NCBI RefSeq assembly: GCF_988242995.1
Contig: NZ_OZ547043.1
Direction: 5' to 3' (one strand)
Length of the DNA stretch: 64,000 nt
Below are positions 6,227 to 43,371 of the stretch, in pieces. Position numbers and translations under genes: made by a program. A model generated the notes under the pieces. That model was not told the DNA's origin. It ran no database searches and was given only the letters and a program-made list of their open reading frames with translations. Position 1 is the first letter of the stretch; each line of letters starts with the position of its first letter.

Positions 6227-7008
6227 GCTGCCACCTTCTGCTCAGTGGCTTTCTGTTTCAGGAATCCAAGAGCTTTCACTGCTTCGGCCTGTGTCAGTTC
6301 TGACGATGCGCGAATGTCGCGGCGAAATATCTGGGAACAGAGCGGCAATAAGTCGTCATCCCATGTTTTATCCAGGGCGATCAGCAGAGTGTTAATCTCC
6401 TGCATGGTTTCATCGTTAACCGGAGTGATGTCGCGTTCTGGCTGACGTTCTGCAGTGTATGCAGTATTTTCGACAATGCGCTCGGCTTCATCCTTGTCAT
6501 AGATACCAGCAAATCCGAAGGCCAGACGGGCACACTGAATCATGGCTTTATGCCGTAACATCCGTTTGGGATGCGACTGCCACGGCCCCGTGATTTCTCT
6601 GCCTTCGCGGGTTTTGAATGGTTCGCGGCGGCATTCATCCATCCATTCGGTAACGCAGATCGGATGATTACGGTCCTTGCGGTAAATCCGGCATGTACAG
6701 GATTCATTGTCCTGCTCAAAGTCCATGCCATCAAACTGCTGGTTTTCATTGATGATGCGGGACCAGCCATCAACGCCCACCACCGGAACAATGCCGTTCT
6801 GCTTATCAGGGAAGGCGTAAATTTCTTTCGTCCACGGATTAAGGCCGTACTGGTTGGCGACGATCAGCAATGCGATGAACTGCGCATCGCTGGCATCACC
6901 TTTAAATGCCGTCTGGCGAAGAGTGGTGATCAGTTCCTGTGGGTCGACAGAATCCATGCCGACACGTTCAGCCAGCTTCCCTGCCAGCGTTGCGAGTGCT
7001 GTACTCAT
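6223..7008 (-). CDS. bet: Recombination protein Bet (Red beta)
   Basis: 261-aa ORF matching lambda Bet; stop overlaps the exo start. Confidence 0.95.
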
Positions 7009-7013
7009 CCGTT

Positions 7014-7310
7014 TTATACCTCTGAATCAATATCAACCTGGTGGTGAGCAATGGTTTCAACCATGTACCGGATGTGTTCTGCCATGCGCTCCTGAAACTC
7101 AACATCGTCATCAAACGCACGGGTAATGGCTTTTTTGCTGGCCCCGTGGCGTTGCAAATGATCGATGCATAGCGATTCAAACAGGTGCTGGGGCAGGCCT
7201 TTTTCCATGTCGTCTGCCAGTTCTGCCTCTTTCTCTTCACGGGCGATCTGCTGGTAGTAACGCGCCCAGCTCTGAGCCTCAAGACGATCCTGAATGTAAT
7301 AAGCGTTCAT
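7014..7310 (-). CDS. gam: Host RecBCD inhibitor Gam (short form)
   Basis: 98-aa [42 protein letters not shown]... matching lambda Gam. Confidence 0.9.
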
Positions 7311-7385
7311 GGCTGAACTCCTGAAAATGGCTGTGAAAATATCGCCCGCGAAATGCCAGGCTGATTAGGAAAACAGGAAAGGGGA

Positions 7386-7796
7386 TTAGCGATTCAGGCC
7401 GTTAGCGCGTCCGTCGAGAAAAACTTCCACGAGCAAATCACGGGTATAAGTGCGCTCGATGCCGCGATGCAGATAAAGCCGTCCGCGTAAATTACCTGAT
7501 GCAGTCCAGGTACCATCTTTGTGTTTGACCAGCATTCCTGGCATGATCGCACCTCGATTAACGGTCTGCGTTCCGTAATGTTGATGAACCATAAAAACTC
7601 CTGCCCGTAAGCTGGGCTGCTGAACATATAGAGACTTCTGCGCGTATTCAGGCGGTGGATGGCCGCCGGTTGTCATAACTAAGTCGCCTCGTTGAAGCGA
7701 CTGAGGTATGAAGTGTTGAGTTGATTTCAGCTGGTCACACCGACGTTCACGCGTCCGTTTCACCCCTCGCACTCCCCGAAGCCTGCTGAAATTCAA
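7386..7796 (-). CDS. Hypothetical protein at the kil/N position; Arg-rich N-terminus
   Basis: 136-aa ORF downstream of gam; N-terminus [15 protein letters not shown]; true start uncertain. Confidence 0.3.
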
Positions 7797-8035
7797 ACTG
7801 CGGATCTAAGCGGTCATCGCAACGGTGAATCAGGTAGTTGCCGTATCGTTGTGTTGTTGCGATGAACTTATTTAAAACTATAGTTGTTTTATCGTCAACA
7901 ACAAAAGTTGTTTTATTGGTTGTTTTAGATATAACTGGTTGTATTTAGGATGGATTTATTTTGTGACTTGAATCGCATAGCGATAACTGAAGCGAGGTTA
8001 TGGTGGTTTTTTTAACGGTGTGTGTGATGAGGGGA

Positions 8036-8068
8036 GGGCAAAAGAAAACCCGGCACGGTGACCGGGAT
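8036..8068 (-). terminator. Candidate rho-independent terminator on the minus strand, downstream of cI
   Basis: Reverse strand gives hairpin CCCGGTCACCGTGCCGGG followed by TTTTCTTTT. Confidence 0.4.
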
Positions 8069-8187
8069 TCTTACGCCGTTAGGTAAAGATATTATTGCGG
8101 TGGCTTAATATTACTACCTAGAGCAAAGATAGGAATTAGTTCTTTACTGAATGAGCACAATGCCCAGTTGATAATTTTTAATTGGTA

Positions 8188-8877
8188 CTACCCATGCTTC
8201 CTATATGTCTGCGGCATGCTCCCAATAACCTTACCGAAGATGAACACCCGGTTCATCTCGTCTTTCTCGATCGGGTCCCACGGTGAGTAGCTTTTGTTAT
8301 CAGAGATGACCAGCAGCTTATCCTTCATCATTTGCAGGCGCTTTACATGGGCTGTGTCGTCGTACAGAAACGCATAGATACCATCACCGTCGAAAGATTT
8401 AACTGTGATATCAACGAACAGCAGATCACCTGGTTCGATCGTTCCTGACATGCTGTCACCACGCACGTTAATGATGCGGATATTTTCCGCCTTCCTACCA
8501 TCGAACATGTGACGAGCATCGTCAAACGAGTACTCAACCGAGCGTAGAACTTCTACAAACTCACGGTTGATGACTCCCGGCCCAGCACTGACTTCTATAT
8601 CAAGAACGTCAATCTTGAAGTATTTGGAATGGCTGACAGTTGATTGTATTGGTTGCACTGTACTGTCTGACATATTTCCAACGCCAGAAGATAACCATTC
8701 TGCGCGCACACCCAAAGCGTTCGCGATCTCCACGATTTTAGTTGTTTGATTAGCTTTCCCTGTTTCGATTTTCTGAATAGCAGCCTGGCTAACCCCGACC
8801 AAATCCCCAAGCGCCTTTTGTGTAAGGCCTCGCGCTAATCTGGCTTCTTTAAGTCTTTCTGAGAGTGTTGTTTTCAT
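8188..8877 (-). CDS. cI: CI-type repressor (XRE HTH plus LexA-like S24 peptidase domain)
   Basis: 229 aa from MKTTLSERLKEARLARGLTQKALGDLVGVSQAAIQKIE with C-terminal autocleavage-type domain; divergent from cro. Confidence 0.85.
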   Translation of the reverse strand: MKTTLSERLKEARLARGLTQKALGDLVGVSQAAIQKIETGKANQTTKIVEIANALGVRAEWLSSGVGNMSDSTVQPIQSTVSHSKYFKIDVLDIEVSAGPGVINREFVEVLRSVEYSFDDARHMFDGRKAENIRIINVRGDSMSGTIEPGDLLFVDITVKSFDGDGIYAFLYDDTAHVKRLQMMKDKLLVISDNKSYSPWDPIEKDEMNRVFIFGKVIGSMPQTYRKHG

Positions 8878-8981
8878 AGTCCAAATGTACAACCAAGGTT
8901 TTATTCCATCAAACGAAAATGGTTGTTGACTAAAAACAACCATAGTTTTAATCTTGATTCAAATTAACCACGGAGGTTGTT
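8878..8981. promoter_or_regulatory. cI-cro intergenic operator/promoter region (OR-like)
   Basis: Inverted repeat GGTTGTT-N7-AACAACC (8911-8931); similar TTGTT/AACAA motifs recur left of cI at about 7860-7915. Confidence 0.5.
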
Positions 8982-9212
8982 ATGAACCCAGCTATCAAAA
9001 CAGCGATCAATATCGTTGGTTCACAAAAGAAACTGGGCGCTGCTTGCGAAGTTTCACAGCAGGCCGTCTATAAGTGGCTTCACAACAAAGCAAAGGTATC
9101 CCCTGAACATGTCGGCAGCATTGTTACGGCTACTGGTGGAGTAGTGAAGGCATACCAGATTCGCCCGGATCTTCCGAAGTTGTTTCCACACACCGAAAAG
9201 AACGCAGCTTAA
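8982..9212 (+). CDS. cro: Cro/YdaS-like HTH regulator
   Basis: 76-aa HTH ORF with GGAGG RBS, divergent from cI. Confidence 0.7.
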   Translation: MNPAIKTAINIVGSQKKLGAACEVSQQAVYKWLHNKAKVSPEHVGSIVTATGGVVKAYQIRPDLPKLFPHTEKNAA

Positions 9213-29025: not shown

Positions 29026-29048
29026 GGCCGCCTGTGCGGCTTTTTTTA
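29026..29048 (+). terminator. Hairpin plus T-run between D and E
   Basis: GGCCGC-CTGT-GCGGCC followed by TTTTTTT. Confidence 0.4.
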
Positions 29049-29060
29049 CGGGATTTTTTT

Positions 29061-29315
29061 ATGTCGATGTACACAACCGCCCAGCTGCTGGCGGCAAATG
29101 AGCAGAAATTTAAGTTTGATCCGCTGTTTCTGCGTCTCTTTTTCCGTGAGAGCTATCCCTTCACCACGGAGAAAGTCTATCTCTCACAAATTCCGGGGCT
29201 GGTAAACATGGCGCTGTACGTTTCGCCGATTGTTTCCGGTGAGGTTATCCGCTCCCGTGGCGGCTCCACCTCTGAATTTACGCCGGGATATGTCAAGCCG
29301 AAGCACTTAGCATGA
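29061..29315 (+). pseudogene. E: Major capsid gene E, 5' fragment (codons 1-84) truncated by the satellite insertion
   Basis: MSMYTTAQLLAANEQKFKFDPLF...GYVKPKH then two foreign codons and stop; the rest of E resumes at 40394. Confidence 0.9.
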
Positions 29316-29468
29316 CTTTCTGAGGCTTTCGTGTAGTTGCTGGTTTTTACACTTAATCTTTTGATAATAAAGAATAAGTTTATCTGGTGCTTTCACTGAA
29401 TTTTCCTCGTTATCTGTGTGTTGCAATCATCTCTGTATTGCAGCTTGTATTGCTTTTTGGGGCTAAAA

Positions 29469-30704
29469 ATGGCTGGCGAGAACAAACTGAGCGACAAAGC
29501 GCTTAAAGGATATCTGGGGAAACCCAGAGAAAAGCAGATCACCATTGCTGATGGAAAGGGGCTTTCTATTCGTGTGAGTACTAAAGGGGCTGTGAGCTTT
29601 GTTTTCTTCTACAGGTTAGCAGGTGGCCGGGCTGCTCCGGTCTGGCTAACGTTGGGTAAATATCCTGATATGTCACTCAAACAGGCAAGGGAAAAGCGCG
29701 ACGAGTGCCGTGGTTGGTTGGCTGACAAACGTGATCCGCGTATCCAGATTAAGATTCAGGCTGAAGAACGCTTAAAGCCGGTTACAGTGGAGGATGCACT
29801 AAATTACTGGTATGAAAATTACTGTAAGGTGCGTCGTAAAACTCATGCTGTAACGCTTGGCAGATTTCGAAAGCATATCTTTCCCTATATCGGTCATTTG
29901 CCCGTAAATGACACTCACCTATATGAATGGCTGGACTGTTTTGACCGAATTAAACGTAATGCACCAGTTATGGCGGCGTATGTTTTTTCTGACACTAAAT
30001 TAGCTCTTCGTTTTTGTCGGGTACGCCAGTACGCGACGTGTGATGCTTTAAAGGATTTGCGCATGAGTGATGTGGGGCAGATTGCAGGTAAGCGGGATCG
30101 GGTTCTGGATGAAGCCGAACTCGGCCAGCTCTGGAAGGCAATTTTTGTCGAGCCTGATTTAAAACTAATGTCTGAATACACGCGAAAAATGTTTGTGCTT
30201 TGTACAGTATTTGGATGTCGAATGAGTGAAGCCCGATTATCAGAATGGAGCGAATGGGATCTCGAAAGTTGGGTTTGGACTGTACCAAAAGATCACTCAA
30301 AAACTGGTGTTGAAATCGTCAGACCAGTACCTGAAATTCTACGACAGTGGGTAACGGATGTTCACGAAGAGACAAAACATACTGGTTATGTGCTGGGAAG
30401 TCTGCGAATTAGAGAAAGCGTAAGCAAGATTGGGGGGAAAATCGGTAAACGTTTGGGCCATGAAAAACAATGGTCACTACACGACCTTAGAAGAACGCTA
30501 TCTACTCATCTAAGTGATCTCGGTGTTGAATTTTATGTAGTAGAACAACTGTTAGGCCATGCGCTACCTGGCGTGGCAGGTGTTTACAACCGGAGTAAGT
30601 TTATGGCTAAAAAACTGGATGCTCTGGAACTCTGGACTACATATCTCAATAGCATCGCAGCTGCTGATTCAAAAGTGACAATCCTCAAACAAAAGGTTGG
30701 TTAA
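29469..30704 (+). CDS. Satellite tyrosine integrase (P4-type)
   Basis: From MAGENKLSDKALKGYLG...; catalytic region HDLRRT...LLGH...VYNRS; located at the element's left end. Confidence 0.85.
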   Translation: MAGENKLSDKALKGYLGKPREKQITIADGKGLSIRVSTKGAVSFVFFYRLAGGRAAPVWLTLGKYPDMSLKQAREKRDECRGWLADKRDPRIQIKIQAEERLKPVTVEDALNYWYENYCKVRRKTHAVTLGRFRKHIFPYIGHLPVNDTHLYEWLDCFDRIKRNAPVMAAYVFSDTKLALRFCRVRQYATCDALKDLRMSDVGQIAGKRDRVLDEAELGQLWKAIFVEPDLKLMSEYTRKMFVLCTVFGCRMSEARLSEWSEWDLESWVWTVPKDHSKTGVEIVRPVPEILRQWVTDVHEETKHTGYVLGSLRIRESVSKIGGKIGKRLGHEKQWSLHDLRRTLSTHLSDLGVEFYVVEQLLGHALPGVAGVYNRSKFMAKKLDALELWTTYLNSIAAADSKVTILKQKVG

Positions 30705-31002: not shown

Positions 31003-31539
31003 TTATAAGAGATTAAATCCAAATAAAGAGTAATCATATACCGGGGTGCATTGCATCCCACTGAATATGCTGATGTTTTTTTCTGTTTCTATCCTTTTTT
31101 CAATAAGTTGTTGTATATTTTTACAGTACAATTTGTGTGTGATGTTATTATCGTAAGCCTGATATAGCAACGTCAATGTTGATGCTATGAAACATGCAGA
31201 AAGAAAATGAACTAGTACATGTGAGCGTTTTTTGGTTGTCCATGATGCATTCGCTTGTGAAATATAAATCATTCTGAGAATGATAATGATGATAGACAGT
31301 AACAGACCACTCAATAAAATAAGTATTGGGTTTGCGTATTTAATTAATGGTTGAGAGCAAAAAACTATTATAGCTCCTGTGACTGCGTATGAGAAAAAGG
31401 AGTAATTAAACTTCTTACTCCTTCTCTCAAGTATTTTAATTTCATCTTGTGTGGGGGTTTTAGATGCCTCTAATATAAGTTTATTAAATGTTTCTGTTAT
31501 CTTGTTTTTTGTGTTTGTGGCTATTTTTTTTAGATTCAT
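31003..31539 (-). CDS. Hypothetical AT-rich membrane protein (2-3 predicted TM helices)
   Basis: 178-aa ORF with hydrophobic segments AVTGAIIVFCSQPLI and ILILLSGLLLSIIIIIL; convergent with alpA. Confidence 0.5.
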   Translation of the reverse strand: MNLKKIATNTKNKITETFNKLILEASKTPTQDEIKILERRSKKFNYSFFSYAVTGAIIVFCSQPLIKYANPILILLSGLLLSIIIIILRMIYISQANASWTTKKRSHVLVHFLSACFIASTLTLLYQAYDNNITHKLYCKNIQQLIEKRIETEKNISIFSGMQCTPVYDYSLFGFNLL

Positions 31540-33191: not shown

Positions 33192-33491
33192 ATGGAAATG
33201 AAAAATTCTGGCTTTATTGCCAGCGGCCCCGCTCGGCCTGAATTTATGAACGGCGATATTTACCGCGATAAATACGGCGGCACGGTAACGATTAAAGGCG
33301 TGGCAGAACGGCGCATCACTTACCGCCGTGAGGGGTATAGCTATGACTGCGTGATGCCTGTTTATCAGTTCCGGCGTGATTTTTCCCTGGTATATGCCGC
33401 ACCCCGCAGTAAGCCCATCAGCAGGGAAAAAGCGCGGGGAAACATCCAGAAAATGAAAAGCATGATTAACGCATTCAGGGGCAAAAAATGA
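33192..33491 (+). CDS. Hypothetical protein
   Basis: 99-aa ORF ending at the primase start. Confidence 0.4.
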   Translation: MEMKNSGFIASGPARPEFMNGDIYRDKYGGTVTIKGVAERRITYRREGYSYDCVMPVYQFRRDFSLVYAAPRSKPISREKARGNIQKMKSMINAFRGKK

Positions 33492-35239
33492 AACTGGCAC
33501 CGAACTTAAAAAAACAGCCACGCGACAGACTGACAGAGGTAATCATCTTTGCAGGTAGTGATGCGTGGAGCCATGCGAAAGAGTGGCGGGAATGGGCGGG
33601 TAAACATATTGCCGCCGACGATGTGCCGCCTGTCGTGCTGGCTGATGAGCAACTGAAAAATATCACCGATTACCGGATCATTGATGAAGATCGTCAGTGT
33701 GTGCGTGTTTACCGCGCAGGACATATCACAGAGCACAGCATGACGCAGATTGTTACGTTACTGGCTGTGGCTGGAGTGAAGACCGTACACGAATACGCGG
33801 GGATTACTGACACCAGCCCAGTGGATTTATCCGAGCAGTTGCCGCGACTCAAAGAGGAATGCGAGCGTGGGGAAAGTCTGGTGCTTAATCTTCCGACGAA
33901 GCAAAAGGCGCAACTTTCACAGATGGCAGACAGTGAACGTGCACAACTACTTGCCGATCGCTTTGATGGTGTGTGTGTTCATGCAGAAAGTGAAATCGTC
34001 CACGTATGGCGCGGCGGGGTATGGTGTCCGGTCAGCACAATGGAGCTGAGCCGCGAAATGGTGGCGATCTATTCAGAGCACAGGGCCACGTTCAGCAAAC
34101 GTGTAATCAATAACGCCGTGGAAGCGTTAAAAGTTATTGCCGACCCCATGGGGGAGCCGTCCGGTGATTTGCTACCGTTCACTAATGGTGTGCTTAACCT
34201 GAAAACGGGGGAATTTTCTCCGCACTCGCCGGAGCACTGGAGCACCACGCACAATGGCATTGAGTACACGCCACCAGTAGCAGGGGAAAACATCCGCGAT
34301 AATGCGCCAAATTTCCATAAATGGCTTGAACATGCTGCAAGAAAAGACCCGCGCAAGATGATGCGTATATGTGCCGCGTTATACATGATTATGGCGAACC
34401 GCTACGACTGGCAGATGTTCATTGAGGCCACCGGAGACGGGGGAAGCGGTAAGAGTACATTTACCCATATTGCCACCCTGCTTGCTGGCAAACAGAACAC
34501 CGTAAGCGCGGAGATGACATCACTCGATGATGCAGGAGGGCGCGCGCAGGTTGTCGGGAGTCGTCTTATCGTCCTTGCCGATCAGCCGAAATATACGGGG
34601 GAAGGCACGGGCATCAAGAAAATCACGGGAGGCGATCCCGTTGAAATTAACCCGAAATATGAGAAGCGATTCACGACGATAATAAGGGCGGTGGTACTGG
34701 CAACCAATAACGACCCGATGATCTTTACCGAACGGGCCGGAGGTGTGTCACGCCGTCGGGTGATTTTCCGGTTCGACAACATTGTAAGGGAGGACGAAAA
34801 AGACAAGGAATTACCGGAAAAGATAGCGGCAGAAATCCCCGTAATTATCCGCCGCTTGCTGGCTAATTTTGCTGACCCTGAAAAGGCACGGGCTTTATTA
34901 CTGGAACAGCGTGACGGTGATGAAGCTCTGGCAATAAAGCAGCAAACGGATCCGGTTGTTGAGCTTTGCGCGGCGCTGGAGTTTCTGGAGGAAGCTCGTG
35001 GGCTAATGATGGGCGGTGGTGGTGACACCGTGAAGTACACGACCAGAAACAGCCTTTACCGTGTCTATATGGCCTTCATGGCATACACAGGAAAGGGGAA
35101 ATGTTTGAGCGTGAATGAGTTCGGAAAGGCTATGAGGTCAGCGGCGAAAGTTTACGGATATGAATATATTACGCGAAAAGTTAAGGGAGTCACGCAGACC
35201 AACGCAACGACTACTGATGATTGCGATGCGTTTTTATAA
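33488..35239 (+). CDS. Primase/SF3-helicase replication protein
   Basis: 583-aa ORF with Walker A (TGDGGSGKST) in the C-terminal half and primase-like N-terminal half; followed by iterons. Confidence 0.8.
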   Translation: MKLAPNLKKQPRDRLTEVIIFAGSDAWSHAKEWREWAGKHIAADDVPPVVLADEQLKNITDYRIIDEDRQCVRVYRAGHITEHSMTQIVTLLAVAGVKTVHEYAGITDTSPVDLSEQLPRLKEECERGESLVLNLPTKQKAQLSQMADSERAQLLADRFDGVCVHAESEIVHVWRGGVWCPVSTMELSREMVAIYSEHRATFSKRVINNAVEALKVIADPMGEPSGDLLPFTNGVLNLKTGEFSPHSPEHWSTTHNGIEYTPPVAGENIRDNAPNFHKWLEHAARKDPRKMMRICAALYMIMANRYDWQMFIEATGDGGSGKSTFTHIATLLAGKQNTVSAEMTSLDDAGGRAQVVGSRLIVLADQPKYTGEGTGIKKITGGDPVEINPKYEKRFTTIIRAVVLATNNDPMIFTERAGGVSRRRVIFRFDNIVREDEKDKELPEKIAAEIPVIIRRLLANFADPEKARALLLEQRDGDEALAIKQQTDPVVELCAALEFLEEARGLMMGGGGDTVKYTTRNSLYRVYMAFMAYTGKGKCLSVNEFGKAMRSAAKVYGYEYITRKVKGVTQTNATTTDDCDAFL

Positions 35240-35528: not shown

Positions 35529-35786
35529 ATGCACACATCAGGAAAACTGAACAAACATATAAAGCCACATTACCGCGCCCTTGATATGGCTGAACACTGG
35601 CTAAGGGTGGCGATTAAGGCAATAGACCGCAACGCCGGGGAAGGATACGCGAAAGCACATCCCGAACTGATAAGCGCATTCATGACAACGGCGGCTGCAA
35701 ACTTTGCCACGCTGACCGAACGGGAGATTGCTGAAGCGGAGGAAGTGACAACAATCAATATTAAGTCCGGAGAGCAGGCAGCATGA
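35529..35786 (+). CDS. Hypothetical protein
   Basis: 85-aa ORF upstream of and coupled to ssb. Confidence 0.4.
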   Translation: MHTSGKLNKHIKPHYRALDMAEHWLRVAIKAIDRNAGEGYAKAHPELISAFMTTAAANFATLTEREIAEAEEVTTINIKSGEQAA

Positions 35787-36232
35787 CGGCGCAAATATCA
35801 GTTTACGGGCGGTTGGTGGACGACCCGCAGACAAAACAGACCAGCAAGGGCACCCCCATGACGCTGGCGCGTATGGCGGTATCACTGCCCTGCAGTCAGT
35901 CGGATGACGGTCTGGCGACGTTGTGGTTATCTGTCCTGGCGTTTGGCAGACAAGCCGACGCGCTGGCAAAGCATCACAAAGGCGAACTCCTGAGCGTGGC
36001 GGGTAACATGCAGATGAGCCAGTGGACTGGACAGAACGGCGAAACGCGGCAGGGCTGGCAGGTTATCGCAGACAGCGTAATCAGTGCGCGATCGGTGCGA
36101 CCGGGCGGCAAAAAAGGCCAACAGGGGCAGGCTACTGACGCACTGAACAGAGCAAAACAACAGGCAGATCAGCAAGGAAGCCAGCCACCAGAGGGAGATA
36201 ATGAGCAATGGGGAGATGATATCCCGTTTTAA
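35783..36232 (+). CDS. ssb: Single-stranded DNA-binding protein
   Basis: 149-aa ORF with Gly/Gln-rich linker and acidic C-terminal tail ending DDIPF. Confidence 0.8.
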   Translation: MTAQISVYGRLVDDPQTKQTSKGTPMTLARMAVSLPCSQSDDGLATLWLSVLAFGRQADALAKHHKGELLSVAGNMQMSQWTGQNGETRQGWQVIADSVISARSVRPGGKKGQQGQATDALNRAKQQADQQGSQPPEGDNEQWGDDIPF

Positions 36233-36448
36233 ATATTGCCAATAAAAAAAGCCGGAAAAAATAAATTTTCCGGCATGCTACATAAATCCCGACCAAAGGG
36301 AGTGAAGATATTAACACTAATTGTCCGCACTGAAGTTGTCACCCCAAAACTTTATACAACATTGCACTCGGTTGCATGTGTTCGCATGACAAATATCGGT
36401 GATAGCATATATCCACAATTATTTTTAATGAATGCAAAGAGGATGCGT

Positions 36449-37489
36449 ATGGTTGATTTATATTCGCCTACTCAGCTTGTACAGGTAGTTAATGCTGTAG
36501 ATGTACAAAAACAACTAAATGCGTTATTTACCAGTTTGTTTTTTACTCGCTCGGTAATGTTTGAATCGCGCGATATTATTCTTGATACAATCGACGATCC
36601 AAATATCCCAATTGCAGCGTTTTGTTCTCCTATGGTGGGTAGTAAAGTTTCACGTGACGAAGGGTACGAATCAAAAACAATTCGTCCAGGCTATATGAAG
36701 CCGAAAAGCAGCATTGATCCAAATAAGTTAGCTGTGCGCCCTGCTGGTGTGTCACCTGAGCAATACAATGCTTTTGGGGCGCGTAATATTAAAGTTAAAC
36801 AGGCGATTGTAAATCAGGCTAAAGCTATTCGTGCACGTATTGAATGGCTTGCTGTTCAGGCAATCACAACGGGGAAAAATATCATTGAGGGCGATGGTAT
36901 TGAACGTTATGAGCTGGACTGGAATATAAAACCACAAAATATCATCACTCAGTCTGGCGGTACTGAGTGGTCAGGTAAGGATAAAGAAACTTTTGATCCA
37001 AATGATGATATTGAGAGCTACGCAGAATTTAGTGAGGGCGTCACTAATATCATCATTATGGGTGGTAATGTATGGAAGAAATACCGTTCATTCAGAGCGA
37101 TAAAAGAGGCTTTGGATACCCGTCGTGGTTCTAATTCCGAACTGGAAACGGCCCTTAAAGACCTTGGTGATTCGGTGAGTTTTAAAGGGTATATGGGCGA
37201 TGTTGCGATTGTTGTTTACAGCGGGCGTTATACCGACGAGGACGGAACAGAAAAACATTTCCTTGATCCTGATTTGATGGTGCTTGGCAATACGGCTCTT
37301 CAGGGGATTGTCGCCTATGGCGGTATTCAGGATCCGGAGCTAATCCGAATGGGGCTGACTAAAGCCGAACTTGCACCGAAAAACTATATTGTGCCTGGTG
37401 ATCCGGCTATTGAATATGTGCAGACACATTCAGCACCACAGCCAATACCGGCCCGCATCAATCGTTTTGTTACCGTTCGCATTGGCTAA
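36449..37489 (+). CDS. Satellite-encoded major capsid protein homologue (lambda E-like)
   Basis: 346 aa; aligns with lambda E along its length (e.g. IITQSGGTEWSGKDKETFDPNDDIESYA vs NITQSGGTEWSKRDKSTYDPTDDIEAYA; DTRRGSNSELETALKDLG; GDVAIVVYSG). Confidence 0.8.
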   Translation: MVDLYSPTQLVQVVNAVDVQKQLNALFTSLFFTRSVMFESRDIILDTIDDPNIPIAAFCSPMVGSKVSRDEGYESKTIRPGYMKPKSSIDPNKLAVRPAGVSPEQYNAFGARNIKVKQAIVNQAKAIRARIEWLAVQAITTGKNIIEGDGIERYELDWNIKPQNIITQSGGTEWSGKDKETFDPNDDIESYAEFSEGVTNIIIMGGNVWKKYRSFRAIKEALDTRRGSNSELETALKDLGDSVSFKGYMGDVAIVVYSGRYTDEDGTEKHFLDPDLMVLGNTALQGIVAYGGIQDPELIRMGLTKAELAPKNYIVPGDPAIEYVQTHSAPQPIPARINRFVTVRIG

Positions 37490-37498
37490 GGGGGAGCA

Positions 37499-37840
37499 AT
37501 GGCTACTCATTACACTGAACTCATGGCTGGCACTGAAGCACTGGTGACTACGCTGGGGATATTTTCAGCTAATAAAGGGGTAATTCCTGCATTTACGCCA
37601 CTGATGCAGGAAGATGCAACAGGTGCACTGGTGGTATGGGATGGTTCGAGCGTAGGTAAAGCGGTTTATGTTTCCGCTGTACAAATCGACACCGCGAAAA
37701 AAACACAGGCTCAGGTCTATAAGACAGGTGTCTTAAATGTTGATGCTCTGAACTGGCCTGAGTCTGTTAAAGAACTGTCAGTAAAGGTTGCAGCGTTTGT
37801 TGGCTCAGGTATTTCTGTTCAGCCGCTGGCTCGTGTGTAA
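37499..37840 (+). CDS. Satellite-encoded head decoration protein homologue (lambda D-like)
   Basis: 113-aa ORF; TPLMQEDATGALVVWDGSSVGKAV...VYKTG parallels lambda [22 protein letters not shown]...FYKSG. Confidence 0.7.
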   Translation: MATHYTELMAGTEALVTTLGIFSANKGVIPAFTPLMQEDATGALVVWDGSSVGKAVYVSAVQIDTAKKTQAQVYKTGVLNVDALNWPESVKELSVKVAAFVGSGISVQPLARV

Positions 37841-37851
37841 AGGGGGATACA

Positions 37852-38235
37852 ATGCAGAATGATTACAATGACCTTAAGCCAATTGCCGAAATGATGTACC
37901 CGAATCCAGCTGTAGAGGAATTAAAAGCTATCGCTGACAAAATGTGTTTAAGCGAGCGCCTTGTTGATATGAATCAGGTGATGGAAATTACAACCCTGAG
38001 TCGTCGTACACTGCTAAACCTTGAGGCTAGTGGAGAGTTCCCGGAGCGTGTGCAGGTTACGGAAGGGCGTAAGGCCTGGTATTTAAGTGAAGTGATCGAC
38101 TGGATAAATAATATTCCTCGCGCTTCTGAATATTGCCGCGTACCTGTCCCAAAAAAGCCAGATGCGGCGCTATGCCTCAAGATTGAGCGTGTACGCCGCA
38201 ATGCACGGGATGGTCGCTATAAGCTGATTGGTTGA
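37852..38235 (+). CDS. Winged-HTH (AlpA/MerR-excisionase-like) protein adjacent to satellite cos
   Basis: 127-aa ORF; C-terminal MEITTLSRRTLLNLEASGEFPERVQVTEGRKAWYLSEVIDWINN HTH; strong RBS; ends 20 bp before the cos-homologous region. Confidence 0.6.
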   Translation: MQNDYNDLKPIAEMMYPNPAVEELKAIADKMCLSERLVDMNQVMEITTLSRRTLLNLEASGEFPERVQVTEGRKAWYLSEVIDWINNIPRASEYCRVPVPKKPDAALCLKIERVRRNARDGRYKLIG

Positions 38236-38257: not shown

Positions 38258-38465
38258 TGGCGGGTCCTTTCCGGTGATCCAGAACGTTACGGGGCGTCAG
38301 GCGCGCAGATTCTTGCTATTTATGACAATTTTCTGCGATTTGCCGTTTCCGTTCTTCTTCCTCGTAACTTAGTGTTTTTACTAGAAATACCCTCTAAAAA
38401 GAAAGGAAATGACAGGTGCTGAAAACAGGCTTTTGGGTCTCCGTCATTTCCTTTCTCATTTTTAT
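38258..38465. promoter_or_regulatory. Satellite cos site homologous to the prophage cos (variant cosN GGGCGTCAGGCG at 38292-38303)
   Basis: About 210 bp alignable with 22896-23110; flanking and downstream repeat segments conserved, 12-mer differs at 5 positions. Confidence 0.75.
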
Positions 38466-38718
38466 CTAAAAGTAAGCATCGAGGCCACCCCAAATGCTTA
38501 TAGAGGTTATTGTGTCACTATGCGTACTGTTCAGGATTTAAAGTAGCAAGACATCTAGTTGCTTGCAGTTTTGGCGAATGATGTGAGGTTCTCTATAACA
38601 GATAATGTAACAAGTTACTGATATATTCTGTTATGGTTGACTTTAAATTTTGTTGCTCCTTCAATGAATTATTGAGGGGTAAAAATTAGGCGTGATAAGA
38701 ATCGATCACGCCTATTGT

Positions 38719-40035
38719 TTATCTTGAAGAAATTTTAGGCAGGCTTTTTAAAAATAAATCTTTATTTCTACTTGCATCAGTTAAAAGTGTTAGGAATATT
38801 TTATCTGTAGGAGTGCATGTGCTCTTGTTTAACAGTAATTCACCAAGTTTCTGTAATCGAGAGAATTGCCCATCCTCTTGGATTCTGTGACGAAGTGTAC
38901 TATCATTTTTAATAACATCAACAAATGCAGAAACCATGTTAATATCAAAGTGTTCAAACATTTCCAATATTAAAGGTGCAGCCCCATTTGAATAAAAATT
39001 CTTCCTTCCATACTGATAGCTGAAACCACGATGGCCAACATAAGTTTTTGTAATGGCTGAAACAAATTCAACAATATTATCTTCAGGGACGAAACTCGAG
39101 AATGGTAATAATTGGGTTACGATTTTTTCCTCTTCTGACCAATTATCTAAAGACTCGGTGAGTTTATTAATGAGAGGCTCAATAATAACTTTTCGGGATG
39201 CAGGGCTAATATACATCAGTCCATCTACCAATAGTATGAATTGTTGTGCCTTCTCTATCTTATTGTTGTTTCCTGAAACTAAATACTTGTCAAATTGTTG
39301 GCCGACTTTACGTCGGTCGTCTTTTGAAAGTAATGTCCATAAAATAGGTGCGCAAAATTCAATGTTGTTTCTGAGTTCACTTGATATATTGGATGAGCAG
39401 TATGTGCCAAAAAAACGAGAGGATAATTCACTGATATAAATTGCAGGTAGATCTGAAAAGGCTTGCTTAACTGCCAGACTATTTTTATTAAATGTTGCCG
39501 AATCCATTTCTGAAAGATATGTAGTTATATCTATGATGGCTGGTGGAAACTCTTTAGAAAGAACGTATTTATTACAATCATTAATCAGGTTCACTACTTT
39601 GATTAAATCAGGGTCGCTACTTTGTGGATGTCCACCAAATAGATTCCTGGTTTCTCTAGCTTGTTGTAATAGTTTCTGACCTTCTCGATCGATAACTCCT
39701 ATTTTAAATGCTCCATCTATTAAATCAAAGTCGCTCACATAATCCTGAAAATCTTCATACGTTTTAATTTCTTTTTTTTGTTTACACTCTTTGTTGAATA
39801 GATCTAGGCTACGATGAATTATCTTTTGACGTAAATCATCAACTACAGCATTCCAGTAAGCAGTGATGGCACTTCTATAACCTTTTACAGGAAGAACTCT
39901 TATTGCTTCTGAAATATATGGGCAGTCAACTACATCATGCCTCACAGTTGAGAGCGCAGTTTGTAACAATGTAACTTCTGTAGAGTCTAGTGGAGTTGGC
40001 TGCACTAAATGAGAACTTATCTCTGTACCCTTCAT
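38719..40035 (-). CDS. AT-rich 438-aa protein with HEPN-like R-x5-H motif (candidate anti-phage/abortive-infection protein)
   Basis: Single long ORF in the satellite's variable end; RNLFGGH at residues 130-136; no ATPase motifs; own AT-rich promoter region 40036-40150. Confidence 0.6.
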   Translation of the reverse strand: MKGTEISSHLVQPTPLDSTEVTLLQTALSTVRHDVVDCPYISEAIRVLPVKGYRSAITAYWNAVVDDLRQKIIHRSLDLFNKECKQKKEIKTYEDFQDYVSDFDLIDGAFKIGVIDREGQKLLQQARETRNLFGGHPQSSDPDLIKVVNLINDCNKYVLSKEFPPAIIDITTYLSEMDSATFNKNSLAVKQAFSDLPAIYISELSSRFFGTYCSSNISSELRNNIEFCAPILWTLLSKDDRRKVGQQFDKYLVSGNNNKIEKAQQFILLVDGLMYISPASRKVIIEPLINKLTESLDNWSEEEKIVTQLLPFSSFVPEDNIVEFVSAITKTYVGHRGFSYQYGRKNFYSNGAAPLILEMFEHFDINMVSAFVDVIKNDSTLRHRIQEDGQFSRLQKLGELLLNKSTCTPTDKIFLTLLTDASRNKDLFLKSLPKISSR

Positions 40036-40393
40036 TTCAGGATTTTCCTATTCTTTTCCATTTTTCTACTCTATTGAATTTGAAAAAGATATCAAGTTCG
40101 TTCTTGCCAGTTTTAAGTGGAAAATTTGATGTTACCTTATTGAGATAAGGCAGTTCTCTATAACCTATTGTTATTAATTATTTTTATTTTTTTCCAATTC
40201 AGATGTTTAGGGCTAAGAAGTTAAGTGAGAGTTCACAGCAAAACTGCTTCTAGTTCCTCACCGAGGAGCAAAAGGTTAAGACAGCGTACTTTGTATTGCA
40301 CAATGTATTGCAGAACCTTCTTTCGAAAGCTACAACAATCAATTTTATATTGAAAATTCAATCATATCCTTTCGATATTGACTCATATAACCC

Positions 40394-41179
40394 AAGCATG
40401 AGGTGAATCCGCAGATGACCCTGCGTCGCCTGCCGGATGAAGATCCGCAGAATCTGGCGGACCCGGCTTACCGCCGCCGTCGCATCATTATGCAGAACAT
40501 GCGTGACGAAGAGCTGGCCATTGCCCAGGTCGAAGAGATGCAGGCAGTTTCTGCCGTGCTTAAGGGCAAATACACCATGACCGGTGAAGCTTTCGATCCG
40601 GTTGAGGTGGATATGGGCCGCAGTGCGGCCAACAACATCACGCAGTCCGGCGGCACGGAGTGGAGCAAGCGTGACAAGTCCACGTATGACCCGACCGACG
40701 ATATCGAAGCCTACGCGCTGAACGCCAGCGGAGTGGTGAATATCATCGTGTTTGATCCGAAAGGCTGGGTGCTGTTCCGTTCCTTCAAAGCCGTCAAGGA
40801 GAAGCTGGATACTCGTCGCGGCTCTCATTCCGAGCTGGAGACAGCGGTGAAAGACCTGGGCAAAGCGGTGTCCTACAAGGGGATGTATGGCGATGTGGCC
40901 ATCGTCGTGTATTCCGGACAGTACGTGGAAAACGGCGTCAAAAAGAACTTCCTGCCGGACAACACGATGGTGCTGGGGAACACTCAGGCACGCGGTCTGC
41001 GCACCTATGGCTGCATTCAGGATGCGGACGCACAGCGCGAAGGCATTAACGCCTCTGCCCGTTACCCGAAAAACTGGGTGACCACCGGCGATCCGGCGCG
41101 TGAGTTCACCATGATTCAGTCAGCACCGCTGATGCTGCTGGCTGATCCTGATGAGTTCGTGTCTGTACAACTGGCGTAA
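40394..41179 (+). pseudogene. E: Major capsid gene E, 3' fragment (codons 83-341)
   Basis: From KHEVNPQMTLRRLPDEDPQ... to ...DEFVSVQLA, matching lambda E downstream of the break. Confidence 0.9.
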
Positions 41180-42660: not shown

Positions 42661-43371
42661 TGTGCACAGAAAACCCCCAGCTAGGCTGGGGGTTCCGGAA
42701 AGCTTTCAGCTTTGAGCCAGTTATTAAAACCCCTTTTGATTTGTTAAAACACCTTGCGGTCTGGCAACTGCAAGTGTCAAACAAGAAATCAAAAGGGGGT
42801 CCCAATGGGGAACGAAAAGAGCTTAGCGCACACCCGATGGAACTGTAAATATCACATAGTTTTTGCGCCAAAATACCGAAGACAGGTGTTCTACAGAGAG
42901 AAGCGTAGAGCAATAGGCAGTATTTTGAGAAAGCTGTGTGAGTGGAAAAGCGTACGGATTCTGGAAGCTGAATGCTGTGCAGATCATATCCATATGCTTG
43001 TGGAGATCCCGCCCAAAATGAGCGTATCCGGGTTTATGGGATATCTGAAAGGGAAAAGCAGTCTGATGCTTTACGAGCAGTTTGGTGATTTGAAATTCAA
43101 ATACAGGAACAGGGAGTTCTGGTGCAGAGGGTACTACGTCGATACAGTGGGTAAGAACACGGCGAAGATACAGGATTACATAAAGCACCAGCTTGAAGAG
43201 GATAAAATGGGAGAGCAGTTATCGATTCCCTATCCGGGCAGCCCGTTTACGGGCCGTAAGTAACGAAGTTGGATGCAAATGTCAGATCGTGTGCGCCTGT
43301 TAGGGCGCGGCTGGTAAGAGAGCCTTATAGGCGCATTTGAAAAACCTCCGGCTATGCCGGAGGATATTTAT
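42661..43371 (+). mobile_element. IS200-family insertion sequence (about 711 bp)
   Basis: Left-end hairpin AAACCCCCAGCTAGGCTGGGGGTT, Y1-type transposase gene, right-end hairpin CCTCCGGC-TAT-GCCGGAGG; interrupts U. Confidence 0.85.
42805..43263 (+). CDS. tnpA: IS200 transposase TnpA (Y1 HUH)
   Basis: 152 aa from MGNEKSLAHTRWNCKYHIVFAPKYRRQ... with HxH (HIHML) motif. Confidence 0.9.
   Translation: MGNEKSLAHTRWNCKYHIVFAPKYRRQVFYREKRRAIGSILRKLCEWKSVRILEAECCADHIHMLVEIPPKMSVSGFMGYLKGKSSLMLYEQFGDLKFKYRNREFWCRGYYVDTVGKNTAKIQDYIKHQLEEDKMGEQLSIPYPGSPFTGRK

Follow-up and report, generated by a model that had tools for sequence, protein, structure and literature searches.

A HEPN-domain protein remotely related to PD-T7-3/DARNA as candidate defence cargo of a helper-embedded satellite

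The satellite and its cargo slot

We analysed a window of 64,000 nucleotides from contig NZ_OZ547043.1 (assembly GCF_988242995.1). The features of the window that concern us are listed with their coordinates in Table 1. [quoted passage not shown] The satellite encodes an integrase, a primase, an SSB, and its own capsid and decoration proteins, followed by an HTH/excisionase-like regulator. It matches the published helper-embedded PICI (HE-PICI) type '11capE', which resides in capsid gene E (PMC10111431), and is therefore an already known element.

Table 1. Features of the satellite and of the gene for the 438-aa protein, in window coordinates
Feature	Position	Strand	Basis or remark
Prophage capsid gene E, first half	29034-29315		partial in RefSeq
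Satellite, 11 kb	~29305 to ~40392		attL near 29305, attR near 40392
Integrase	29418-30704		
178-aa membrane-like ORF	31003-31539	-	31% GC
Primase	33488-35239		
SSB, bacterial-type	35783-36232	+	ends DDIPF; phrog_44
Lambda-E-like capsid protein	36236-37489		
Decoration protein	37499-37840		
HTH/excisionase-like regulator	37852-38235		
Lambdoid cos-like non-coding segment, left bound of cargo slot	38260-38463	+	~82% identity to intergenic DNA
Intrinsic-terminator-like hairpin, G+C-rich 10-bp stem then ATTTTT	38687-38714	-	5 nt past stop codon
Complete ORF, 438 aa + stop, DARNA-like HEPN protein	38719-40035	-	ORF list, ATG start
C-terminal all-alpha solenoid-like domain, ~residues 166-438	38722-39540	-	AF2 model
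Candidate ligand-contact loop, residues 334-346	38998-39036	-	GHRGFSYQYGRKN
N-terminal HEPN domain, ~residues 17-165	39541-39987	-	
Codons for R130-N-L-F-G-G-H136, predicted catalytic R-x5-H	39628-39648	-	conservation; alignment to DARNA R117/H122
18-nt direct repeat, 2.2 copies, 77% match	40042-40081		overlaps weak promoter candidate
Weak sigma-70-like promoter candidate TTGATA-16-TAGAGT	40068-40095	-	33 nt upstream of ATG
Right attachment junction, prophage capsid gene E resumes (..AAGCATGAGGTGAATCCGCAG..)	40385-40395		ORF comparison, near 40392
Prophage capsid gene E, second half	40403-41179		partial in RefSeq
IS200/IS605-family TnpA-like ORF (HIHMLV motif)	42754-43263	+	between prophage tail genes

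The gene of interest encodes a 438-residue protein that is entered in RefSeq as a hypothetical protein (WP_016247987.1). It occupies the slot between the cos-like segment and the right attachment junction, which is where the earlier note had placed it. The cos-like segment matches intergenic DNA of 103 lambdoid phages at the identity given in Table 1, and we take it to resemble the lambda cosB region. The gene is transcribed in the opposite orientation to the capsid and decoration genes and to the HTH gene, also as previously described. A Shine-Dalgarno-like AGGA sequence lies ~8 nt upstream of its ATG codon, and a terminator-like hairpin closely follows its stop codon. With a GC content of 34.9%, the gene is AT-richer than both the remainder of the satellite (45.1%) and the prophage flanks (52-57%), in agreement with the compositional claim made for it before. 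The proposal that it has its own AT-rich promoter region fared less well: the opposite transcription stands, but the promoter is not established, because promoter-like hexamers upstream of the gene are no commoner than in shuffles of the sequence (6 sites against 7.4 expected) and are without statistical support. The 18-nt direct repeat directly upstream of the start codon is a possible operator.

The gene is not the sole AT-rich accessory gene of the satellite. A second AT-rich ORF, of 178 residues and with predicted hydrophobic helices, has no PADLOC or PHROG match and follows the integrase and AlpA-like genes, where the satellite has its other variable slot. In strain EC931, this post-integrase slot holds a DUF2971 protein and a SWIM zinc-finger protein. 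The prophage of the same strain is otherwise syntenic with the one in the window but is missing the TnpA-like ORF.

What lies between the HTH gene and attR differs among sister satellites. A TIR-domain protein (WP_000688840.1) is encoded there on the minus strand in strain MLI108K3, a 311-aa hypothetical protein (WP_016230959.1) in another sister satellite, and TerS together with a small hypothetical ORF in others. The sister-slot loci, at positions 7100-8242 of a locus taken from NZ_CP117006.1 and 7428-8363 of one taken from NZ_CP019903.1, are equivalent to positions 38500-40390 of the window. Since its content varies in this way, and includes a known defence gene as an alternative, the slot behaves as a cargo or defence hotspot, which fits the earlier description of the gene as cargo at the variable end of the satellite. 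Among 5426 complete E. coli genomes, 364 have the capsid-decoration-HTH backbone and 11 have the gene for the 438-aa protein; of the 364 with the satellite backbone, only 11 carry the gene.

An R-x5-H motif conserved in a HEPN-fold domain

The 438-aa protein belongs to a large, unannotated family. A search of a collection clustered at 90% returned 857 homologues (E <= 1e-3), typically with 50-60% identity, and every one of them is assigned to Pfam PF27235 ('AF_1680') in the precomputed annotation. Their sources are Cronobacter, Xanthomonas, Stenotrophomonas, Campylobacterota, and a large number of metagenomes. When cluster representatives were searched with a profile, the family grew to at least 524 clusters at 50% identity in Bacteria and Archaea, of which many are full length, with 410-495 residues and 17-43% identity. 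The protein matches phrog_27609 (E 2e-189), to which PHROGs assigns no function, and defence catalogues do not at present list the family. Neither the protein nor 51 of its relatives matched the version of Pfam-A that we searched at threshold, the best score among the relatives being that of a single member to DUF4145, a HEPN family (E 0.022). NCBIfam gave no match to the protein. Searches of PDB sequences using phmmer and the full-length family profile returned chance matches only, and the literature on PF27235, WP_016247987 and 'Dandelion' yielded nothing relevant.

Residues 130-136 of the protein read RNLFGGH, and the earlier note had compared them to a HEPN motif. By itself an R-x5-H pattern is within chance, because a second pattern of this kind (R-x4-H, R69..H74) is present in the same protein, and its significance must therefore rest on conservation and fold. 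Among 32 close homologues, R130, G135, H136 and P137 are invariant. An alignment of 39 N-terminal domains from the superfamily, reaching down to ~20% identity, leaves W61, R130 and H136 as the only invariant residues, which identifies the R-x5-H motif as the conserved core of the domain. N131 is conserved in at least 90% of these sequences, giving the typical 'RN...H' motif, and distant clades carry RNxxSAAHP, in which the spacing is R-x6-H. The comparison drawn in the earlier note is thus upheld by both alignments.

The full-length AlphaFold (AF2) model of the protein has a pLDDT of 86.9 and is composed entirely of helices. An N-terminal HEPN domain is followed by a solenoid-like domain, which is presumed to be a sensor and oligomerisation domain. 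Comparison of the full-length model with the PDB using Foldseek gave weak matches to ARM/HEAT solenoids, which derive from the C-terminal two thirds, and no HEPN match. The absence of a HEPN match is explained by the dominance of the solenoid and was resolved by modelling the N-terminal domain alone. This model forms a four-helix up-down HEPN bundle, as expected from the earlier reading of the motif, and its fold search includes RnlA, LsoA, HepS and Cas13b among the lower-scoring matches. R130 and H136 supply the conserved R-x4-6-H signature of the RNase-type HEPN superfamily. A Foldseek search of AFDB50 showed that the fold of the whole protein recurs in 194 clusters (TM 0.55-0.96), spread over many bacterial phyla and the Archaea and nearly all described as uncharacterised.

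Homology to the HEPN domain of DARNA

The nearest named system to the 438-aa protein is PD-T7-3, and as judged from sequence the relationship is remote and concerns the HEPN domain only. PD-T7-3 was obtained by functional selection from E. coli ECOR30, where it was annotated as 'HEPN' (PMC9519451), and was later characterised under the name DARNA (bioRxiv 10.64898/2026.02.22.705581). DARNA consists of an N-terminal HEPN domain (residues 1-159) with the motif R117-x4-H122 and a C-terminal Pds5-like helical domain (residues 160-456), and forms a dodecamer. It is activated by ssDNA presented by phage SSB, cuts tRNA anticodon loops, and acts in an abortive-infection mode (bioRxiv 10.64898/2026.02.22.705581). 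Its identifiers are RCP48690.1 for the protein of ECOR30 and PDB entries 9tra-9tre. The PDB entries 9wx2 and 9wxf, named 'Dandelion', appear from their sequence to be DARNA as well, solved independently and deposited under a different name.

The PD-T7-3 model (PDLC04108) is the sole PADLOC match of the 438-aa protein, with E 0.023 and 11.9 bits over residues 40-132. True PD-T7-3 members score between E 1e-134 and 1e-164 on the same HMM, and a PADLOC scan of 20 relatives of the protein gave no PD-T7-3 match. When PDB sequences were searched with the HEPN profile of the superfamily, the top match was 'Dandelion-hepn' (9wx2) with E 0.007, and the 12-chain entry 'Dandelion' (9wxf, 460 residues) matched with E 0.032. 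The aligned Dandelion fragment in turn scores E 8.5e-27 on the PD-T7-3 HMM. The DARNA sequence was recovered indirectly, by way of the Dandelion fragment, a frameshifted metagenomic contig, and a family member rebuilt from that contig, which was used as the query in a family search that returned 235 members. One of these, P0280, contains the Dandelion fragment exactly and has all ten of the residues mutated in the DARNA paper (F6, N33, R98, R117, H122, K201, K204, E347, F368 and W406), from which we identify it as DARNA.

We compared the superfamily alignment of the target with 45 DARNA-family sequences using hhalign. The full profiles match with a probability of 95.4% (E 2e-8), and the alignment places R130 on R117, H136 on H122, and the invariant K111 on the RNA-binding R98. 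Comparisons of the separate domains and their controls are given in Table 2. The full profiles align over 335 columns, and homology along the full length of DARNA was considered but is not established: domain by domain, the comparison is significant for the HEPN part only, and the claim of C-terminal homology was dropped on that account. Pairwise BLAST between the target and DARNA is not significant (26% identity over 111 residues, E 0.023 for a single comparison). The earlier note had not recognised the protein as a member of any named system; the link to PD-T7-3/DARNA is visible only by profile-profile comparison.

Table 2. Domain-wise hhalign comparisons of the target family with DARNA
Comparison	Probability	E
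HEPN vs HEPN	96.4%	1.1e-9
HEPN vs HEPN, target's own clade only	94.9%	4.3e-8
HEPN vs reversed HEPN (control)	1.1%	0.047
C-terminal vs C-terminal	3.8%	0.011
C-terminal vs C-terminal, target's own clade only	0.2%	0.38
C-terminal vs reversed C-terminal, target's own clade only (control)	0.1%	0.42

The profile comparisons establish that the HEPN domain of the target is homologous to that of DARNA, with R130 and H136 aligned to the catalytic R117 and H122, and that it is fused in the same order to a helical domain of like length and general type. The two proteins are also similar in overall length. There are also differences. Overall identity to DARNA is below 20%, and at threshold the target family goes undetected by the PD-T7-3 HMM. 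The spacing of the motif is R-x5-H in the target and R-x6-H in distant clades, whereas it is R-x4-H in DARNA. [quoted passage not shown] In a low-confidence alignment of this region, D372, Q403 and W406, with which DARNA reads the 'CT' of its ssDNA, align to A353, T380 and H383 in the target, and only F368 (F347) and R407 (R384) of DARNA have corresponding residues. Because the DARNA HMM rejects the target, the spacing differs, and the CT readers are unmatched, we have not filed the protein as a DARNA member. We treat its family as a sister family of DARNA with the same working principle.

A further difference from DARNA is an extra conserved loop in the target clade at residues 334-346, which is modelled with low confidence (pLDDT < 50 at residues 341-344). 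Neither DARNA nor the distant clades have this insertion, which contains residues that are invariant among close homologues (G334, G337, S339 and R344) and lies ahead of F347, the residue aligned with F368 of DARNA, which stacks on ssDNA. We regard the loop as a candidate for contacting a ligand.

The SSB gene of the satellite is noteworthy in that DARNA distinguishes ssDNA bound by phage SSB from ssDNA bound by host SSB. A functional link between this SSB and the HEPN cargo was considered and set aside, since the SSB gene is part of the conserved satellite backbone whatever the cargo.

Other HEPN systems are more distant. Pfam, NCBIfam and PADLOC detect no sequence similarity to HepT/HEPN-MNT toxins, AbiA/AbiF/AbiJ-type proteins, HepS or ApeA. 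The target has neither a partner gene nor a partner domain such as MNT or reverse transcriptase, and its C-terminal domain differs from those of this group. The Csm6/Csx1 proteins of type III CRISPR systems have their sensor in an N-terminal CARF Rossmann domain, whereas that of the target would be the C-terminal alpha-solenoid, and the target has no CRISPR association.

Genomic contexts, proposed mechanism and alternatives

Homologues of the gene occur in a variety of mobile and defence-related settings. Copies that are 80-84% identical lie at the end of capsid-forming satellites by fis in Cronobacter and in one metagenome. A copy with 93% identity lies in a defence island on a plasmid of Klebsiella variicola, between a hypothetical/Fic region and the anti-phage gene Ppl; a P-loop NTPase and a DUF4041 protein are encoded close by. 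A Campylobacterota copy adjoins a TIR-beta-propeller protein and toxin-antitoxin pairs, and other copies are found beside IS elements and SymE, or beside ParDE. Two chromosomal contexts are ordinary and without defence genes. Homologues with 50-60% identity are present at non-satellite chromosomal and plasmid loci in Xanthomonas, Campylobacterota, Bacteroidota and others, and members of the superfamily occur in 86 PLSDB plasmids. A tblastn search of 50,697 phage genomes gave no match to the protein, so it is not a phage gene.

Given its fold, its motif, its relationship to DARNA and its location, we consider it probable that the gene encodes a single-gene HEPN RNase of the abortive-infection type with a fused sensor, carried by the satellite as exchangeable defence cargo. 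Systems of this kind are known: DARNA is a precedent for a sensor fused to a HEPN effector of abortive infection. The protein would act against phage as effector and sensor in one, within a satellite that is embedded in its helper. Its N-terminal domain is predicted to be an endoribonuclease that needs no metal ion. On the model of other HEPN enzymes, two HEPN domains would dimerise and form a composite active site from the two copies of R130 and H136. The C-terminal alpha-solenoid of ~270 residues would hold the enzyme inactive until an infection cue is sensed, and may also drive higher-order assembly. Once active, the enzyme would cut cellular RNA, and the ensuing arrest of translation would stop phage growth. 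DARNA provides precedents for the RNA target (tRNA anticodon loops) and for the trigger (ssDNA presented by phage SSB). Sensing of ssDNA and SSB as in DARNA is possible for the target but is not indicated by its residues.

The predicted RNase could alternatively be an addiction or stabilisation toxin, forming a TA-like module that maintains the satellite or the prophage-satellite composite and is neutralised by a small RNA, a peptide or autoinhibition. We consider this improbable. A second ORF, a tandem repeat array and an Rfam RNA were all sought near the gene and none was found, and eight contexts share no conserved neighbouring ORF. An RNA antitoxin or a partner ORF is rejected on these grounds, in keeping with the earlier note, which had seen no partner antitoxin, and the gene lacks the conserved antitoxin neighbour or repeat RNA of type II/III toxin-antitoxin systems. 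The conserved C-terminal domain also fits an intramolecular sensor or regulator better, as in DARNA, and roles in addiction and abortive infection are not mutually exclusive. An RNase directed at helper or host transcripts upon induction might instead favour packaging of the satellite, as a form of piracy. Satellites such as P4, SaPIs and PLEs encode helper-interference functions, and in the window the gene adjoins cos, and the satellite brings capsid and decoration genes of its own and is inserted in the capsid gene of its helper. However, only a small minority of genomes with the satellite backbone have the gene, and sister satellites hold unrelated genes in the same slot, so that it is dispensable for the satellite life cycle; its homologues at non-satellite loci likewise speak against this role, which we judge to be unlikely.

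It is very improbable that the protein is a non-catalytic or housekeeping HEPN protein, which would bind nucleotides or RNA without cutting, in the manner of sacsin, Roquin or MtlR-like proteins, or would process host RNA with no role in conflict. The arginine and histidine of the nuclease motif are the sole invariant residues of the N-terminal domain besides W61, and DARNA, which is nearest to the protein in sequence, is an active tRNase. The distribution of the family is patchy and mobile, and the AT-rich composition of the gene points to recent transfer. Addiction, helper interference and a non-catalytic function are all disfavoured against abortive infection because the gene is dispensable, widely found outside satellites, and without a partner, and because its catalytic pair is invariant.

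The abortive-infection reading can be extended, tentatively, to the family as a whole. PF27235 ('AF_1680') proteins may be a large cross-phylum group of single-protein HEPN immune sensors that combine the catalytic module of DARNA with a different sensor and cue, and that helper-embedded and capsid-forming satellites exchange as cargo, protecting the helper lysogen from rival phages. In place of the CT-containing ssDNA that phage SSB presents to DARNA, the cue would then perhaps be a phage protein or a nucleic-acid structure of another kind. A comparison of two HEPN enzymes with a common catalytic module and divergent sensors would help to explain how triggers are chosen and how a helical domain gates the HEPN site. 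If its defence role is confirmed, the gene would add an uncatalogued family to the anti-phage repertoire, and one that is common, being found in satellites, plasmids and chromosomal islands from Enterobacteria to Bacteroidota and Archaea. It would also follow that HMMs of the PADLOC type miss a whole sister branch of DARNA.

The cos-adjacent cargo slot of HE-PICI 11capE satellites would likewise be a defence hotspot, a role that is not addressed in the paper describing these satellites (PMC10111431). A related satellite with a small terminase gene is located in the portal gene, not the capsid gene, of a lambdoid prophage in STEC316 (positions 6702-9126 of a locus taken from NZ_CP041431.1), and another relative adjoins tRNA-Ile/mug.
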